DNA of 21,063 nt, taken from Fidelibacterota bacterium (GTDB lineage Bacteria > Fidelibacterota > Marinisomatia > Marinisomatales > S15-B10). The DNA is taken from contig JBHIAI010000019.1 in the NCBI GenBank assembly GCA_046861655.1, positions 1-21,063 on the forward strand. Direction: 5' to 3'. The position numbers and the translations under genes were made by a program. The notes beneath the pieces were generated by a model that made no database searches, was not told the origin of the DNA, and saw only the letters and a list, made by a program, of their open reading frames with translations. Below, one piece after another: positions 2,926 through 20,315 of the stretch (positions are counted from its first letter, which is position 1; the number at the start of each line of letters is the position of its first letter).

Positions 2926-3095
2926 CCTCTTCCGCCAACTCATTTAAGGCCGCGTTCTTATTCTCCTGATGTTTTGTCGCCTTCGGGGAGTCAGAAGAAC
3001 ACGGCTGAAGTGAGCGGAGGGGGAGAGGATCTTCTGTTTGGTCCCGCCGGGGCGGGACGGAAAAAATGGCTTCTTAGTAGAGACGAACTGGGTGC
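2926..3095 (-). repeat. Degenerate, internally deleted copy of the structured repeat at 10858-11126, in inverted orientation
   Basis: Collinear reverse-complement matches: 2945-2956 to 11094-11105 (12/12), 2974-2983 to 11061-11070 (10/10), 3027-3034 to 10930-10937, and palindrome gtcccgcc-gg-ggcgggac (3041-3058) to 10892-10909. Confidence 0.8.
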
Positions 3096-6182: not shown

Positions 6183-7481
6183 ATGAACAGAACGATGGAT
6201 AAACTGATATCACTCTGCAAACGGCGGGGATTCATTTTTCAGAGTTCGGAGATTTACGGGGGCCTGGAAGCAACTTATGACTACGGACCCCTGGGTGTGG
6301 AACTGAAGAACAACATCAAACAAATCTGGTGGCGGGACATGGTGACCTCCCGGCCGGACGTGGTGGGAATGGACTCGGCCATCCTTATGCACCCCAGGGT
6401 TTGGGAAGCCAGCGGGCACATAGAGGAATTCCACGATCCCATGGTGGACTGCAAACAGTGCCAATCCCGCTACAGGGCCGATTCCGTCGACCTGGACAAA
6501 CCCTGTCCGAAATGCGGCAGCAAAGACTGGACCCAGCCCCGTCAGTTCAACCTGATGCTGAAAACCCATTACGGTCCTTCGGAAGATTCCTCTTCCCTTA
6601 TCTACTTTCGGCCCGAGACAGCCCAGGGAATTTTTGTCAACTTCGTCAATGCCCAGTCCACAGCCAGAATGAAGATCCCCTTCGGTATCGCCCAGATCGG
6701 CAAGGCCTTCCGAAATGAGATTACTACCGGAAACTTTCTGTTTCGCACCCGGGAATTCGAGCAGATGGAACTGGAGTACTTCGTCCAGCCTGAGGAATCG
6801 GGAAAGTGGTTGGACTACTGGGTACAGGCCCGGTTCGACTGGTACAGGAGTCTGGGTATCACCGAAAGCAGACTTCGACTCCGCCAGCACGAAAAGGACG
6901 AACTGGCTCACTACGCTAAGAGCTGCTACGACGTGGAATACGAATTCCCCTTCGGCTGGGCCGAACTGGAGGGTATTGCCGACCGGGGAACGTACGATCT
7001 CGACAGACACATGGAGTTCAGCGGAAAGAAACTGACCTGGTTCAACCCGGACTCCGAAGCCCACATCACCCCGGCTGTGGTGGAATCGTCCGCCGGTGTA
7101 GACCGGCCCGTTTTGATGGTCCTGACGGACGCCTATCACGAGGAGGAAGTAAGGGGAGAAAAGCGTTTGGTCCTGAAACTCAGTCCCGGACTGGCCCCTA
7201 CCAAAGTGGCTGTTTTCCCCCTGGTGAACCGGGACGGCATGCCCGACATCGCCCGGCGCATCTTCGACCATCTCCGGGGAAACTACTCCGCATTCTACGA
7301 CGATGGAGGATCCATCGGCCGTCGCTACCGTAGACAGGACGAAGCCGGAACGCCCTTCGCCATCACCGTGGACTCCCAGACCCTGGAAGATCAAACCGTC
7401 ACCGTCCGGAACAGGGACAGCATGGACCAGGAAAGGGTGGATTCGGACCGCCTAGGTCAGTACCTTCAGGAGAAGCTATGA
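6183..7481 (+). CDS. glyQS: Glycine--tRNA ligase, alpha2 (dimeric) type
   Basis: LCKRRGFIFQSSEIYGG, YDYGPLG, RPETAQGIF, FRNEIT..FLFRTREFEQME, anticodon domain GSIGRRYRRQDEAGTPF. Start is one of 6180/6183/6195. Confidence 0.97.
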   Translation: MNRTMDKLISLCKRRGFIFQSSEIYGGLEATYDYGPLGVELKNNIKQIWWRDMVTSRPDVVGMDSAILMHPRVWEASGHIEEFHDPMVDCKQCQSRYRADSVDLDKPCPKCGSKDWTQPRQFNLMLKTHYGPSEDSSSLIYFRPETAQGIFVNFVNAQSTARMKIPFGIAQIGKAFRNEITTGNFLFRTREFEQMELEYFVQPEESGKWLDYWVQARFDWYRSLGITESRLRLRQHEKDELAHYAKSCYDVEYEFPFGWAELEGIADRGTYDLDRHMEFSGKKLTWFNPDSEAHITPAVVESSAGVDRPVLMVLTDAYHEEEVRGEKRLVLKLSPGLAPTKVAVFPLVNRDGMPDIARRIFDHLRGNYSAFYDDGGSIGRRYRRQDEAGTPFAITVDSQTLEDQTVTVRNRDSMDQERVDSDRLGQYLQEKL

Positions 7482-8014
7482 GCGACTTTACCGATCGAAT
7501 CATCCGTTCCGCCAGACTCGATATCAGTCTCTACGAAGAAGTGGAATCCGACCCGGAAGCCATGCGACAGGCCATGACCGTGGTGGTCCTCTCCGGTGTG
7601 GCCGCGGGGCTCGGAAGCTTCGAAAATGCCGGTCTGGGCGGAATCCTGGCAGGATCGTTCGTTGCCCTGGTGGGATGGTTCATTTGGGCCTACCTCACCT
7701 ATTTCATCGGAACGAGATTCCTCCCTGAGCCCCAGACCCGGGCAGACTATGGCCAGCTCCTTAGAACCATCGGCTTCGCCAGCTCCCCCGGCCTGATTCG
7801 GGTCCTTGGCATCCTCCCCTTCTTGAGACCCGTAGTCTATCCCGTGGCAGCCATCTGGATGCTCGTCGCCATGATCATCGCCGTCAGGCAGGCCCTGGAC
7901 TACACCAGTACCTGGAGGGCCGTGGGAGTGTGCGTCATCGGCTGGTTTATCCAGTTGTTGATTCTAGCCCTTTTTATGTCTGTTATCGGTCCCCCGGCTC
8001 AACCCGCGCCGTGA
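7478..8014 (+). CDS. Yip1 family membrane protein
   Basis: [35 protein letters not shown], about 5 TM helices. ATGA overlap with the glyQS stop. Confidence 0.8.
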
Positions 8015-8853
8015 CCATCTCCAAGGCCCGGGAGGTCAGGATCTCCGTTGCCCTGACCACCTTCAACCGGGCCCACCTCCTGAAACGGGCCCTCGATTCC
8101 ATCATGGCCCAGACCTTAGACCCCCACGAAATCATCGTTGTCGATGATGGATCCACCGATGAAACACCGGCGATGATCACGGAATCGTACCCCCATGTTT
8201 CCTACCTCGTCCAGCCCAACACCGGGGTCAGTGCGGCCCGGAACCGCGGGATCCAGGCGGCCTCTGGCGAATGGATCGCCTTTCTAGACTCGGATGATGC
8301 CTGGCTTCCGGAGAAACTCTCCCGTCAGGCAAGAGCCATTCTCGAGAACCCATCCATGAAAATCTTCCATACGAACGAGATCTGGATCCGAAACGGCTGC
8401 CGTGTGAACCCCGCCAAACGGCACGCCAAGAGCGGAGGCTGGATCTTCTCCCGGTGCCTTCCCCTCTGCTGCATCTCGCCGTCCAGCGTGATCATTCACC
8501 GGGCTGTCTTCCAGTCGGTGGGTCTGTTTGATGAGAGTCTTCCCGTCTGCGAGGATTATGACATGTGGCTGCGCATCACCGCAAGGTTTCCCGTTTACTA
8601 CGTGGATAAGCCCCTGGTAGTGAAATACGGCGGTCACCCCGATCAGCTCTCCCACCGCTACTGGGGAATGGACAGGTTCCGGATACGGGCCCTTGAGAAG
8701 ATACTCGCTTCGGTCGATCTATCCGAAACCGACCGGAAGTCTGCCAGGCTACAACTGGAGAAAAAACTCTCCGTCTACATCCAGGGAGCCCTCAAACGTG
8801 GGAAAGTCCAGGAGGCCCACGCTTACCGGAAACGGTACGAAAATGCGCCGTAG
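8011..8853 (+). CDS. Glycosyltransferase family 2 (GT-A fold)
   Basis: [33 protein letters not shown] (DxD), EDYDMWLR. Start reassigned to GTG 8011, which forms a GTGA overlap with the Yip1 stop. Confidence 0.92.
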
Positions 8854-10783
8854 CCTCAACATCGTGGCGGCCCTCCTGCCGGAAGCGGAGCCCCTGATCC
8901 GCCGGTTCAATCTGACCAAGAGCGATGACCGGTCTCCTTTGCCAATCTACACCAACCCTTCTGAAACCGTCAGGTTGGTGGTGTCCGGCGTGGGCGCGGA
9001 ATCGGCCGGGGAGGCTGTATCTATTCTTGCCAGCCGTACCGGTTCCCCTGACAGGACAGTATGGCTGAACGTCGGTATCGCAGGGCACAGAGATTTCCCT
9101 GTGGGTACCCCCGTACTGGCCCGGCGCATCACAGATTCCATCACCGGCCGGTCCTGGGACCTGCCCGGCTCTGTCGTCCTCCCGTGCCGGAGTACTTCCG
9201 TTACCACCGTGAACGAACCGTTGGAAACATTTCCCAACGGTGACGTCTTCGAGATGGAGGCCAGCGGTTTCTACGCCGCCGCCTGCCAGGTAGCGACGCC
9301 GGACCGGATTCAGGTGCTGAAGATCATTTCCGACAATCACCGGTCCTCCTTCCGGAAGATTTCGGCGGCAAGAGTGAAAGACCTCATGGAAAGGAACCTC
9401 CATGTCATCACAAGGACCGCCCACCAGATGGCACGGGGTCGAACCCAGGAACGTCTCCGATCCCTTTCCAAGCAGACCTTTTACAAGAGTCTCAACAAAG
9501 ATTCTCGGGATTTTATCCAGGAGATTGAACTGGCTTACGCACTGACATTCCAGGAGCTAAGACAGGTTATGGAAATCGGAATCGATTTTCAGATGTGGGG
9601 GGAGCCTACGGTGCGGCAGCAGTGGCGGGAACTCGAACAGGGAAACGGCGGTCCTGAAACGGCTCGAAAGGAACTTCTCCTGAAGGCTCTCCGGGAACGC
9701 TGGCAGACCTTCCGTGACCAGGAAACCGTCTATGAACGCACCAAACCAGCCCCTGTCATATCAAATCTGGCAAAGAAAAAGCTTATCCTGCGCCAGGAAT
9801 CCAACGGTGTTTACGGTATGTGTCCGGTGGCATCGGAGAAAACCGTCTGCTGTAATCTAAGAACGCTGGATGCCGCTCAGGGATGCGGCTTCGTGTGCAC
9901 CTACTGCAGCATTCAGACTTTTTACGATCCAGCAAAGATCGCAGTGGACTCAAACCTGGCACAAAAGCTTGAAAACATTCACCTGGACCCCGGCAGGAGG
10001 TACCATATCGGTTCGGGTCAATCTTCCGATTCACTCCTCCTGGGTAACAGAGGGGGTATCCTGGAGGCCCAGTTTGAATTCGCCCGGGAAAACCCGAATG
10101 TGGTGCTTGAATTCAAGACCAAGTCAAAGAACACGGCTTATCTTCTCGAGGCGGACGTCCCCCCGAACGTCTTTGTCAGCTGGTCCTTGAATCCCCAGGT
10201 GATTATCGACCATGAAGAACTCCGCACCGCCTCGCTGGAACAGAGATTGACCTGTGCCCGCAGGGTGGCAGACCGGGGAATCCGTGTGGGCTTTCACTTT
10301 CATCCCATCATTCTTCACCGGGGATGGAAAGATAATTACACAGAGCTCGTCCACAGGGTCATCAACAGTTTTTCTCCAGAGGAAGTCGCCTTCGTATCCT
10401 TGGGAACCCTTACTTTCATCAAGCCAGCCATAAAGAGTCTACGTCAGCTGGGGATCCCCAGTAAGGTGCTACAGATCCCCATGGAGGACGCCGCCGGCAA
10501 GATGTCATATCCCATGGCCGTGAAGGAGGAGATGTTTGGGTTAGTTTGGCGGGTTTTCCGGCCCTGGCACGGGAAGGTGTTTTTCTACCTCTGCATGGAG
10601 GTCAGGGAGTTATGGGAAAAGGTTTTCGGGTATTGTTACCGGAACAATGAAGACTTCGAAAACGCCATGCTGGATGCGTTGTTTAGTAAACTTAATCTTG
10701 TATCCCATCCCTCCTCTGTCGGTTTCCAAGCAACTTCTACGGTGGCAGCGACTTCCCCGGAGTCCCTCCCACTTCCCTCCTGA
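8843..10783 (+). CDS. Fusion: N-terminal MTA/SAH nucleosidase/purine phosphorylase-like domain + C-terminal spore photoproduct lyase-like radical SAM domain
   Basis: N-domain: [36 protein letters not shown]-domain: GCGFVCTYC (CxxxCxxC, 9884-9907), [30 protein letters not shown]. Start reassigned to ATG 8843, overlapping the GT2 stop. Confidence 0.85.
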
Positions 10784-10820
10784 GAAACACTCTTGTTCCG
10801 TCCTTTTTTGCGCTAAGAAA

Positions 10821-11228
10821 GTACGAAAACATCTTTTCCATGAACGGGACCCGAGACCCCCACTCGTGTGTCCCAAAGAACCTTTCTTTTTGTCCCGCCC
10901 GGGCGGGACCAAGAAAACCGTCGCTGTAGGAAGATCCAGCACCGCTGACCTCGTCGCCTCAGCCATCCGTTAAACTTGCCCCCGAAAAGCCCGGGGGCTC
11001 AGACAGTAACGGATGGTTCTTCCTCGGCTCGGGTCAACTAACCCCGTGCTGCATTTTCCTAAGGCGACAAGAACGAAAAGACATAAAAGAAAAAACGCGG
11101 CCTTAGAATAGTTTCGGAAGAAGAGGATGACTCTGGACGGGGAGAAGAATGAATTCCTGTCTGACGATGCCGCCGCAGGCGGCAGAGGAGTTTAATTCAT
11201 TCCCCCGGACAGGGGAAATCGCACCCAC
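10821..11228. repeat. Large multi-hairpin intergenic element (MITE/REP-like or structured RNA) between convergent genes
   Basis: Perfect 18-bp palindrome at 10892-10909. Nested stems: 10920-24/11064-68, 10927-35/11053-61, 10937-42/11046-51, 10946-50/11032-36, 10962-72/11007-17, 10978-84/10992-98. Second hairpin: 11147-55/11194-202 with 11168-74/11178-84. Confidence 0.8.
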
Positions 11229-12914: not shown

Positions 12915-13043
12915 GCATTGGCTCCGTGTGGAAGATCTGAAGAAGTGATGGAATTTTGTTCGCGATGCCTGGAAATCCAAGCGTTCATTCCAGGGGGATG
13001 GACCACAGAGGACACAGAGACGGAGTATAGGAGAGATGGGAAC

Positions 13044-13120
13044 CGTAGTTCGTAAAGCGTGATTCGTAAAGCGTGAATCGTAAAGCGTGATTCGTAATGC
13101 GTGATTCGTAATGCGTAATA
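13044..13120. repeat. Heptamer tandem array (CGTnnnn x11, with 14-nt higher-order period cgtaaag-cgtgatt)
   Basis: Units read directly: cgtagtt cgtaaag cgtgatt cgtaaag cgtgaat cgtaaag cgtgatt cgtaatg cgtgatt cgtaatg cgtaata. Confidence 0.92.
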
Positions 13121-13152
13121 CGTTTCTGGTCCCTGGATACTGCCTCCTGCAC

Positions 13153-18886: not shown

Positions 18887-19354
18887 ATGCTGAAGGCCAT
18901 TCAAAGATTCTTCAATGACCATATTGTGACGGAGGTGCCCGAGGATGACACCTCAGGGGGGCATGAATCTGTCCCCCTGGCGGTGTGCGCTCTTTTGCTG
19001 GAAATGGCTCATGTGGATGGTGAGTTCGGTGAGGAGGAAATGGCGGATATCATAAATCTGATGAAAGAAGAGTTTGAGGTGGATTCAGAACAGATCCACC
19101 AACTCATGGCCCTGGCCCAGCAGGAACGGGAGGAGAAGATAGATCTGTGGCAGTTTACCCGGCTGATTCACGACCGTTGTGACCGGGGGGAAAAGATAAG
19201 AATCCTGGAAACGTTGTGGTCTGTCGTGTATTCAGACGGTATTCTGGACGCCCACGAGGATTATCTCATGCATAAGCTGGCCAGTGTGCTGGATCTCAGA
19301 CACCAGGATCTGATCGACGCCAAACTTCGGATTCTGGAGGGCGGGAATGGCTGA
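18887..19354 (+). CDS. TerB family (tellurite resistance/DjlA N-terminal-like) protein
   Basis: LAVCALLLEMAHVDGEF..EE, DLWQFT, LWSVVYSDG.LDAHED..MHKLA..L. Confidence 0.85.
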   Translation: MLKAIQRFFNDHIVTEVPEDDTSGGHESVPLAVCALLLEMAHVDGEFGEEEMADIINLMKEEFEVDSEQIHQLMALAQQEREEKIDLWQFTRLIHDRCDRGEKIRILETLWSVVYSDGILDAHEDYLMHKLASVLDLRHQDLIDAKLRILEGGNG

Positions 19355-20315
19355 CGGACCGTCCCCCGGGACATGGCCCCGTTATCTCGAAGCTTATGAG
19401 TCGGGGGTTCTCCATGAAAAGGTAGGTCGGGCCCTTGAGATGCTGGAGTCATGCCGGGTGTGTCCCCGGGACTGCGGTGTGAACAGGTTAGAGAACCAGT
19501 GGGCGGTCTGCAAGAGTGGGCGGTATGCCACGGTGAGCAGCTTTTCCCCCCATTTTGGTGAGGAAGATTGTCTCCGGGGTTGGAAGGGTTCCGGTACCAT
19601 TTTCTTTTCACACTGCAATCTAAAGTGTGTTTTCTGTCAGAACGCCCATATCAGTCAGAAAGGGTCGGGGGCAGATGTTAGCCCGGATCAGTTGGCTAGC
19701 ATGATGGTGGCTCTTCAGAAGAGGGGATGTCATAACATCAACTTCGTCACTCCAGAACATGTGGTTCCACAGATTCTGGAGGCTCTTCCCCTGGCAATCG
19801 AAATGGGGCTTCATCTTCCTCTCGTCTACAACACCAGTGCTTTTGATTCTCTCGAAAGCCTCCAGCTCCTGGATGGGCTGGTGGATATCTACATGCCTGA
19901 CTTCAAGTTCTGGGACCCGGAGCTGGCCAGACGGTATGTGAAGGCGGTGAACTATCCGGAGACCGCCAGAGTGGCCATCAAAGAGATGGTCCGCCAGGTG
20001 GGTGATCTTCAGTTTGATGAAAACGGACTGGCCACCCGGGGGGTTCTGGTGCGGCATCTGGTCATGCCGGGATTGGAGGAGGATTCCCGCCAAATCTTTC
20101 AGTTTCTCGCCAGAAACATTTCGCCGGACACCTTCGTCAACGTTATGGGCCAGTACAGGCCGGCCCACAGGGTTGACAGTACATCCTACTCCGAAATCAA
20201 CCGTTCAGTAAGGACGGACGAACTGTTCCACGCCATTCAGCTGGCCCAACGCTCGGGCCTTCACCGGCTTGACGGTCCCCAGCGGCGGGTGGCGGTCAGG
20301 ATTTCAGGGTCTTAG
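19347..20315 (+). CDS. pflX: Radical SAM protein, PflX family
   Basis: CRVCPRDCGVNR, HFGEE.CL.G..GSGTIFFSHCNLKCVFCQN, HNINFVTPEH, DIYMPDFK, VRHLVMP, NVMGQYRP. Confidence 0.88.
   Translation: MADGPSPGTWPRYLEAYESGVLHEKVGRALEMLESCRVCPRDCGVNRLENQWAVCKSGRYATVSSFSPHFGEEDCLRGWKGSGTIFFSHCNLKCVFCQNAHISQKGSGADVSPDQLASMMVALQKRGCHNINFVTPEHVVPQILEALPLAIEMGLHLPLVYNTSAFDSLESLQLLDGLVDIYMPDFKFWDPELARRYVKAVNYPETARVAIKEMVRQVGDLQFDENGLATRGVLVRHLVMPGLEEDSRQIFQFLARNISPDTFVNVMGQYRPAHRVDSTSYSEINRSVRTDELFHAIQLAQRSGLHRLDGPQRRVAVRISGS

Follow-up and report, generated by a model that had tools for sequence, protein, structure and literature searches.

A nucleosidase fused to a radical SAM enzyme of the spore photoproduct lyase fold, a rare fused form of a widespread bacterial gene set

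The stretch of DNA analysed here (the window) comprises positions 1 to 21,063 of contig JBHIAI010000019.1 from the Fidelibacterota bacterium assembly GCA_046861655.1. In it, the gene for a family 2 glycosyltransferase (GT2) is followed by a single open reading frame (ORF) that joins a nucleosidase of the methylthioadenosine/S-adenosylhomocysteine nucleosidase (MTAN) fold, through a helical module, to a radical S-adenosylmethionine (SAM) enzyme of the spore photoproduct lyase (SPL) fold. We find that this fusion is real and that it is a rare fused form of a widespread bacterial module, which probably carries out the radical modification of a small molecule rather than the repair of UV damage as in spores. 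Genomes, loci and proteins are labelled G###, L### and P####, respectively, with G000 the source genome. The features on which the argument rests are:

8011–8853, plus strand: GT2 glycosyltransferase, soluble, of a module-specific subfamily (PF00535, orthologue identity, hydropathy)
8843–10783, plus strand: 646-residue fusion of nucleosidase, helical module and SPL-like radical SAM enzyme (single open frame, Pfam, fused homologues, spanning contigs)
8843–9436, plus strand: MTAN-fold nucleosidase domain, residues 1–198 (model, VIA, hhalign, 57 orthologues)
9446–9718, plus strand: helical module, residues ~202–292, with an LTFQELRQ motif (five helices in the model, hhalign, reciprocal distribution)
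9752–10690, plus strand: SPL-fold radical SAM core, residues ~304–616 (VIA, Foldseek)
9821–9823, plus strand: Cys327, a candidate H-atom donor in the column of SPL Ser76 and the clostridial Cys (alignment column; PMC3467042)
9848–9853, plus strand: Cys336-Cys337, two invariant Cys within an insertion of 7 residues that SPL lacks, possibly metal or cluster ligands
9884–9907, plus strand: CxxxCxxC motif for the [4Fe-4S]-SAM site (Cys348, Cys352, Cys355); the next residue, SPL Tyr98, is Ser356
10016–10030, plus strand: GQSSD motif, with Gln393 in place of Cys140 and the SAM-binding Ser142 and Asp143 kept
10592–10594, plus strand: Cys584 in a YxCME motif, beside the SPL Tyr339 position and invariant in the long type (139/139)

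The fused gene and its glycosyltransferase

The genes topA, ccmH, glyS, Yip1, GT2 and the fusion form one translationally coupled run on the plus strand. The GT2 ORF (280 residues) starts with a GTG that overlaps the stop of the upstream Yip1 gene, and the ATG of the fusion, which is single-copy in the genome, lies 11 nucleotides inside the GT2 end, so that the original prediction, made from the sequence alone, was right in reading the GT2 stop as overlapping the start of a single 646-residue ORF (8843 versus 8853). The same prediction had named an assembly frameshift as the artefact that might produce such a fusion, and this is ruled out by spanning contigs and fused homologues. The domain junction (~9436–9446) is spanned without an indel by one contig each in three of four metagenome runs, which are all hydrothermal-vent metagenomes from a single study, possibly with the source sample among them; no RNA data set is listed as containing this DNA. 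Among the best 120 homologues, two besides the protein itself are full length (P0003 at 69% and P0004 at 55%) and the other 117 match the SPL part only; a fused protein, 69% identical and probably the same as P0003, is encoded in G001, of the same genus. The named homologues, together with syntenic loci, suggest Marinisomatota as the source. Nucleosidase–SPL fusions are also found in G149 and in Fusobacterium vincentii, the Atlas holds a 207-member cluster of 619-residue fusions, and in a quick tree the fusions of the window, G149 and F. vincentii fall in three separate SPL clades among split relatives. A 625-residue open frame in G019 was rejected as a further case, as ORF calling gives two genes, and the long open frames in G318, G253 and G329 are upstream extensions. 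A different joining, of nucleosidase and GT2 (493 residues), occurs at L152:4728-6209 in G178, where a ParB-like gene lies elsewhere near an SPL gene of the ELTD type.

The GT2 matches PF00535 well above its cut-off (E 3e-33, 115.5 bits against 23.3), and none of the named NCBIfam GT2 families reaches its own cut-off against it. It carries the subfamily motif described in the original prediction, its DDGS and DxD-type LDSDD motifs are invariant in 12/12 orthologues, and it is rich in invariant Lys and Arg. Identity to orthologues is 51–65% within the order and 53–63% in 80 loci of many phyla, and the highest 19-residue hydropathy (1.49) gives no clear membrane helix. A link to phages was not upheld: no GT2 relatives were found in viral contigs, and two records labelled as phage look, by their gene content, like pieces of bacterial chromosome. 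A gene for a Yip1-domain membrane protein (7478–8014) separates glyS from the GT2 and is coupled to both; we rejected it as a module member because glyS runs straight into the GT2 in 9 relatives.

The radical SAM domain and its active site

The original prediction had proposed profile searches and a structure prediction for the two enzyme domains. The searches place the SPL domain above the cut-off of its Pfam family (PF20903, E 8e-18, 64.8 bits against 27, residues 344–531) and give a weak match of the nucleosidase to PNP_UDP_1 (E 0.01, residues 7–98), for which the MTAN fold emerges from the model. In AlphaFold models made separately for residues 1–200 and 201–626, the latter (predicted local distance difference test score, pLDDT, 91.5) shows five helices followed by the SPL fold, whose core matches 4fhc with a VIA Z-score of 26.6 (root mean square deviation 2.8, 273 aligned residues; Foldseek E 5e-14), the next match standing at Z 15.3. 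Neither of two more specific models reaches its cut-off on the SPL domain (TIGR04070, 65.4 bits against 400; TIGR03886, 39.5 against 437.55).

PMC3467042 identifies Cys140 as the H donor in Bacillus-type SPL, with a Cys at the position of Ser76 serving in Clostridium, names Tyr98 as a candidate relay and R193, E268 and Y339 as the residues that bind dihydrothymine, and describes binding of the lesion phosphate by R273 and K309 and a hairpin tipped by R304/Y305. We compared these columns in a multiple alignment with three SplB-family proteins. That GQSSD at 10016–10030 stands in place of ACTSD proved exact: it aligns to ACTSD of G. thermodenitrificans SPL, with Gln393 at Cys140. The accompanying remark that there is no Cys holds for this motif and fails for the active site, where Cys327 holds the Ser76 column. 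This Cys is present in 42/42 rows of the long type to which the window protein belongs, a Cys at position 76 is also found in 4/4 ELTD-type rows, and the pattern CP-x7-CC-x10-CxxxCxxC recurs in 139/139 long-type sequences. The register is preferred because the multiple alignment, the ELTD and YDCD registers of a pairwise profile alignment and the range of the structural superposition, which covers the Ser76-region segment (model 104–385 on 4fhc 51–341), agree. The short types have a Tyr at 140 (30/30 and 12/12) and no Cys at 76, and every module subtype keeps a candidate H donor, either Cys at 76 or Tyr at 140. The window enzyme probably has its donor in Cys327, so the premise from which the original prediction derived a stoichiometric use of SAM, a missing donor Cys, falls away, as this is the clostridial donor position (PMC3467042). 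Such use could be argued, more weakly, only from the loss of Tyr98 together with the fused nucleosidase.

The SAM-binding residues Y96, S142, D143, K174 and S195 of SPL are all kept in the window protein, and the phosphate ligand K309 is kept as Lys553. The Tyr98 column reads Ser in 40 and Thr in 2 of 42 long-type rows (Ser356 in the window), R273 is replaced by Thr524, and the thymine-binding R193, E268 and Y339 are replaced by Ser446, Gly521 and Leu583; none of the four module subtypes keeps these three. The window protein has a hairpin shorter by 7 residues (6–7 for the module), with the R304/Y305 tip lost, and the median net charge of the four SPL subtypes is +3 (the window's type), −1, +0.5 and +1, versus +11 in true SPL (n=3). 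As neither Tyr98, nor the hairpin tip, nor any of the thymine-binding residues is retained, we conclude from the alignment that the window enzyme is not a spore photoproduct lyase, in agreement with the original prediction that the substrate is something other than spore photoproduct.

That the protein is an ordinary SPL of the clostridial kind, recycling SAM via Cys327 and bearing an incidental N-terminal domain, is in our view very improbable. It would account for the shared fold, for the retention of Y96, D143, K174 and S195 and for the Cys at the clostridial donor position; it would have to accommodate the replacement of R193, E268, Y339, Y98, R273, R304 and Y305, a score of 65 bits against a cut-off of 400, invariant catalytic acids in the nucleosidase, the co-inheritance with GT2 and SDR (short-chain dehydrogenase/reductase) genes, the finding of this DNA in hydrothermal-vent metagenome runs (one study) and the presence of the module in non-sporulating phyla. 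The invariant acids and the replaced binding residues equally disfavour spore photoproduct repair with an inactive N-terminal domain, an outcome that the original prediction had itself listed against its proposal. Compared with SplB (EC 4.1.99.14; G. thermodenitrificans 4FHC–4FHG, 4RH0; TIGR04070), the window protein shares the fold, CxxxCxxC, the SAM-binding residues and K309. Unlike SplB, it has the 7-residue insertion with its Cys pair and a C-terminal extension, a helical module in place of the N-terminal α/β domain, a fused nucleosidase, a linked GT2 and a low net charge.

Distribution of the module and its variable parts

The conserved linkage of the three domains that the original prediction had put up for a survey of gene neighbourhoods is borne out and strong. 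Among 41 genomes of the order, a match to the fusion is seen in 28, which include all 23 that carry the GT2; among 20 stretches fetched, 11 carry GT2, nucleosidase and SPL in that order, 6 nucleosidase and SPL, and 3 SPL alone. Of 80 GT2-picked loci from many phyla, a nucleosidase is present in 49, an SPL match in 27 (one a weak one of the PA0069 type) and both within 6 kb in 26, and a whole-genome search of 49 genomes, holding 50 GT2 loci (48 of the 53 without an SPL match and 2 with weak ones), finds an SPL-like gene in 46, full length in 45. As a control we took 250 scored gammaproteobacterial genomes, an even draw from the class of a Methylococcales genome with that centre included and one unscored. 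SPL is found in 32, the nucleosidase in 30 and the GT2 in 29; any of them occurs in 33, all three in 25 and none in 217 (10–12 candidates were scored per genome, and no p-value is given, since kin are not independent). A fourth gene, encoding a classical SDR, follows the module in many loci, and all 21 SDR-positive control genomes are SPL-positive; no SDR orthologue was found in G000 (best match 123 bits) or in the 41 genomes of the order (two matches of ~144 bits, versus at least 260 for orthologues).

Four architectures can be distinguished: I) in the phylum of G339, GT2, a ParB-like gene and an SPL with a GE-x-x-DS motif, II) as in the window, GT2, a short nucleosidase and a long SPL (QSSD), III) GT2, a nucleosidase with a tail, a short SPL (YDCD) and an SDR, and IV) a nucleosidase with a tail, a short SPL (SYxTD) and often an SDR, for which no GT2 orthologue was found in F. 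vincentii, G024, G029 and G038. In the phylum of G339, an SPL-like gene is present in 92/151 genomes and a nucleosidase match in only 22/151, mostly weak; 20 long loci from it hold the GT2 in 17, the ParB-like gene in 17 and a nucleosidase orthologue in none. The SPL-like gene is therefore the constant, with the helical module constant in types II–IV; some lineages do without the GT2, some without nucleosidase activity and some without the SDR. The linkage in the original prediction stands, and its three-gene picture has to be amended, since GT2 and nucleosidase are each missing or dead in some lineages and the SDR and the mobile helical module had been overlooked. Many genes labelled as spore photoproduct lyases in bacteria that do not sporulate are part of this module; with such genes in 32/250 genomes of one class and 92/151 of one phylum, the label is probably incorrect on a large scale. 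Two further loci were recorded. At L171:977-6711 a truncated nucleosidase–SPL–SDR set lies beside a helicase, with neighbours that we take to be the TIGR03916/TIGR03915 pair of DNA-modification or repair radical SAM proteins. At L035:3825-7954 (G038) a separate group of SPL-like radical SAM genes, three in a row and one of them with a long insertion, lies by restriction-type genes; going by the translations, it looks like a mobile or defence island.

The nucleosidase model (pLDDT 95.7) has the MTAN 2h8g as its top VIA match (Z 22.9, root mean square deviation 2.4, 195 aligned residues). The N-terminal Glu, EME and SD motifs that had been read from the sequence are indeed kept (E14; D/E-M-E139, with EME at 9251–9259; S163 and D164, with ISD present), and E14, E139, K160 and D164 are invariant in 57/57 orthologues. 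E14, E139 and D164 correspond to Glu12, Glu174 and Asp197 of Escherichia coli Mtn; we assume catalytic roles for Glu12 and Asp197 (the titles of PDB entries point the same way) and likewise for Glu174, Arg193 and Ser76. MTAN Arg193 is Lys160 here (Lys in 57/57), MTAN Ser76 is Ile79 (mostly Ile or Val in orthologues), and the middle segment is ~35 residues shorter than in E. coli MTAN. The family is large (2,206 clusters at E up to 1e-30) and scores far from its named relatives: PRK05584 gives 18.9 bits against a cut-off of 169, TIGR03468 and TIGR03664 do not match the window nucleosidase at E 0.1, and TIGR03664 weakly matches 10/16 orthologues (best E 6e-11). By hhalign its profile aligns to E. 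coli Mtn with E 2e-8 and to HpnG with E 4e-10, a comparison of unequal profiles (one sequence and five, respectively). Mtn/Pfs (TIGR01704) and Chlamydia CT263 share the fold (Z 19–23), the Glu12/Asp197 equivalents and Met173-Glu174; Mtn/Pfs differs in standing alone, where the nucleosidase here is tied to one radical SAM partner, and in having Arg193, Ser76 and the full middle segment. On these profile and residue tests, the nucleosidase is not a member of Mtn, HpnG or MqnB.

Its catalytic acids are not kept everywhere. In 2 of 62 tail-bearing proteins (G132 and G184) all three motifs are lost, leaving a catalytically dead protein that keeps the helical tail, with GT2 and SPL intact; these lie between the GT2 and SPL genes at L163:5963-6703 and L164:5396-6058, and another MTAN-like gene is present in both genomes. 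Other MTAN-fold genes have been recruited beside module genes in G017, G421 and G178, and a Pfam search of G000 finds a purine nucleoside phosphorylase and one other NP-I protein and no canonical MTAN. Dam methyltransferases produce S-adenosylhomocysteine, and at L064:6834-8228 (Acidobacteriota) the module nucleosidase, directly behind the GT2, forms an in-frame fusion with a DNA adenine methyltransferase of the Dam family (TIGR00571, 185 bits, above cut-off).

A dedicated nucleosidase also recalls adenosyl transfer in hopanoid synthesis, where, according to PMC13459092, the radical is added by HpnH, which draws an H from an exchangeable residue of its active site; HpnG cleaves off adenine and HpnI attaches N-acetylglucosamine. 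In the present system, the radical would add to an unsaturated acceptor and the adduct radical be quenched by Cys327, after which the nucleosidase would depurinate the adduct, the SDR reduce the opened ribose and the GT2 glycosylate the product. Beyond this precedent (PMC13459092), the nucleosidase profile fits HpnG at least as well as E. coli MTAN, with the shorter middle segment; the fusions to SPL in three clades and once to GT2 would suit channelling, and Fusobacterium retains the nucleosidase alongside a canonical MTAN. A step of a pathway would not be expected to disappear, however, and the nucleosidase is dead in G132 and G184 and was not found in most ELTD-type genomes, just as the SDR was not found in the 41 genomes of the order, nor the GT2 in type IV; a linked acceptor-making gene was not found, and the HpnG/MTAN comparison suffers from its unequal profiles. 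We consider this route unlikely. Membership in the hopanoid or futalosine pathway itself was dropped, since true HpnG and MqnB are separate genes in module-bearing genomes, and both are kept as analogies: HpnH-HpnG-HpnI and MqnE-MqnB follow the same gene logic of a radical SAM enzyme with a dedicated MTAN-fold enzyme (and a GT2 in hopanoids), and HpnH and MqnE differ in fold from the enzyme here (MqnE, Z 15.3). For MqnE and MqnB, the chemistry is taken from general knowledge of these enzymes.

The helical module lies at the N-terminus of SPL in the window's clade and at the C-terminus of the nucleosidase in other clades; the nucleosidase tail and the N-terminal helices of long SPL are homologous by hhalign (E 5e-5, probability 68%, 60 columns), and exactly one partner bears the module in 62/63 hand-assembled genome pairs, unlinked genes included. 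We propose that the radical enzyme requires it as an accessory part, irrespective of the gene that bears it. A ParB-like gene takes the middle position in the phylum of G339, in 21/30 short and 17/20 long loci (ParB_N E 6e-7, TIGR00180 E 8e-10). At L154:4187-5251 (G057, Calditrichia), a nucleosidase bears a 160-residue tail that resembles the C-terminal half of the ParB-like partners (E 1e-4, probability 55%; a single bridging sequence) and may be an intermediate between architectures; BLASTP of this tail against one ParB-like protein gave no match. Between the main helical-module profiles and the ParB-like family there is no significant match (E 0.13 and 0.32), and the Atlas ParB look-alikes of the module (TM-score 0.54–0.57) fall below the Atlas bar.

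These partners bear on a second alternative, which we hold to be somewhat unlikely, in which the SPL-fold enzyme would repair a lesion not caused by UV or modify DNA or RNA, the helical module or ParB-like protein would target it, the GT2 would glycosylate a base and the nucleosidase would clear 5'-deoxyadenosine. Its closest fold is that of a base-flipping DNA-repair enzyme, far above other radical SAM proteins (Z 26.6 versus 15.3); K309 or R273 is kept; the middle gene in the phylum of G339 and the one nucleosidase tail are ParB-like; the GT2 has many invariant Lys and Arg and 53–63% identity across phyla; and single loci adjoin an endonuclease III-like gene (L021) or Dam (L064). Against it stand the near-neutral net charge, the hairpin shortened by 6–7 residues and lacking R304/Y305, the failure of the main helical-module profiles and of the Atlas look-alikes to reach significance or bar, an SDR partner that is hard to place, and a GT2 that was not found in viral contigs. 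In its boldest form, which we rate as rather unlikely, the SPL fold would have a large non-spore branch active in the dark on nucleic acid: in many anaerobic or deep-sea bacteria, a radical enzyme carrying an H donor of its own, with a ParB-derived helical loader and a dedicated glycosyltransferase, would install or reverse a sugar-linked base modification or lesion not yet described, and SplB would be a specialised offshoot of this older system.

Proposed chemistry and the surrounding genes

The reading that we favour, tentatively, is that a soluble glycoside or a derivative of a nucleotide is tailored by an epimerase-like radical reaction, and that the nucleosidase is a replaceable helper that clears 5'-deoxyadenosine. 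Radical SAM epimerases with a Cys donor release one 5'-deoxyadenosine per turnover. In the sequence proposed, 1) the SPL-fold domain, which carries the cluster motif, would bind [4Fe-4S] and SAM and make the 5'-deoxyadenosyl radical, as radical SAM enzymes generally do, 2) the radical would take H from a soluble substrate that differs from spore photoproduct and is probably either a glycoside or a nucleotide or sugar derivative bearing a phosphate, made by the GT2 or decorated by it in a later step, 3) Cys327, by its aligned position, would give H back, as in NeoN and YydG, yielding an epimerised or rearranged product, 4) the thiyl radical would be re-reduced from outside, given that Tyr98 is Ser, possibly via a site formed by Cys336, Cys337 and Cys584, with one 5'-deoxyadenosine released per turnover, and 5) the fused nucleosidase, whose fold and catalytic acids are in place, would cleave this to adenine and 5-deoxyribose; in many lineages an SDR would add a redox step. 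PMC5682303 gives an enzyme Cys as the H donor in NeoN, YydG and PolH, and the substrate of NeoN is a glycoside. The likeness to these enzymes that we propose is one of mechanism, the quenching of a substrate radical by Cys; the model of the window enzyme has no SPASM-type C-terminal domain, unlike the Cys-donor epimerases, and any auxiliary site would be new.

A small-molecule substrate is suggested by the low net charge, the replaced thymine-binding residues and the GT2 and SDR partners, which are small-molecule enzymes. The role of the nucleosidase as a replaceable helper is suggested by its loss in genomes with another MTAN-like gene, the recruitment of other MTAN-fold genes, the Dam fusion and the lack of a canonical MTAN in G000. 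The idea that the enzyme carries its own domain for clearing 5'-deoxyadenosine thus remains the best single reading, with fold and catalytic acids kept, and does not follow from a missing Cys, from which it had first been drawn. A pterin-glycoside substrate was dropped, since the PDB matches of the SDR are generic (sepiapterin reductase at 132 bits among several at 128–134), and a structure prediction that paired the SPL part and the nucleosidase domain, which scored 0.00 twice with controls that did not fold, is used neither way.

Several observations weigh against the proposed tailoring. The assignment of Cys327 as donor comes from alignment rather than coordinates, and one pairwise hhalign gave the long-type CP loop a different register. 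Each subtype keeps one of the two phosphate-binding residues of SPL (K309 here, R273 in the short types), which fits nucleic acid, as does the ParB-like partner in one phylum. The substrate cannot always be the product of the GT2, given that no GT2 orthologue was found in four genomes, and neither 100 clustered loci nor 20 further ones revealed a substrate gene or any other neighbour that is constant. As for the nucleosidase, 60/62 tail-bearing proteins look catalytically intact, a tighter retention than simple housekeeping predicts, and F. vincentii keeps an intact fused one beside a canonical MTAN.

By these tests the enzyme is not a member of SplB and would work like a Cys-donor radical SAM enzyme on the SPL scaffold, with an MTAN-like helper; in the fused form the two enzymes are joined in one polypeptide. 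Should the substrate be a small molecule, this would be a new radical tailoring pathway; should it be nucleic acid, a new modification or repair route. Cys327, the swap of Cys and Tyr donors between clades and the naturally dead nucleosidases are directly testable. We found no description of the module in the literature, as searched mainly in open papers and judged largely by titles and the starts of abstracts.

Elsewhere in the window, a second radical SAM gene (19347–20315; PF04055, E 6e-12), which we take to be PflX-like, lies behind a TerB-domain gene and an FKBP-type isomerase, with no link to the module seen. A small pair of genes at 2295–2883 is presumably a toxin-antitoxin system of the HigB/HigA type, judging from the translations. 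The ATP-binding cassette (ABC) ATPase at 119–889 has the Walker A motif GPNGAGNTT, with Asn in place of the usual Lys that its L018 relatives carry, either a sequencing error or a local change. A scan for promoters and terminators gave signal only at chance level. Imperfect short repeats, inverted, flank the block from topA to the fusion (3038–3086 / 10864–10912 and 2201–2223 / 10821–10843), and matching contigs with loose ends at 10818–10886 mark the flanking repeat as a dispersed intergenic one. At 13027–13123, upstream of a DUF2007 gene, a 14-nucleotide unit is repeated in tandem (~7 copies), followed by a 7-nucleotide subunit.

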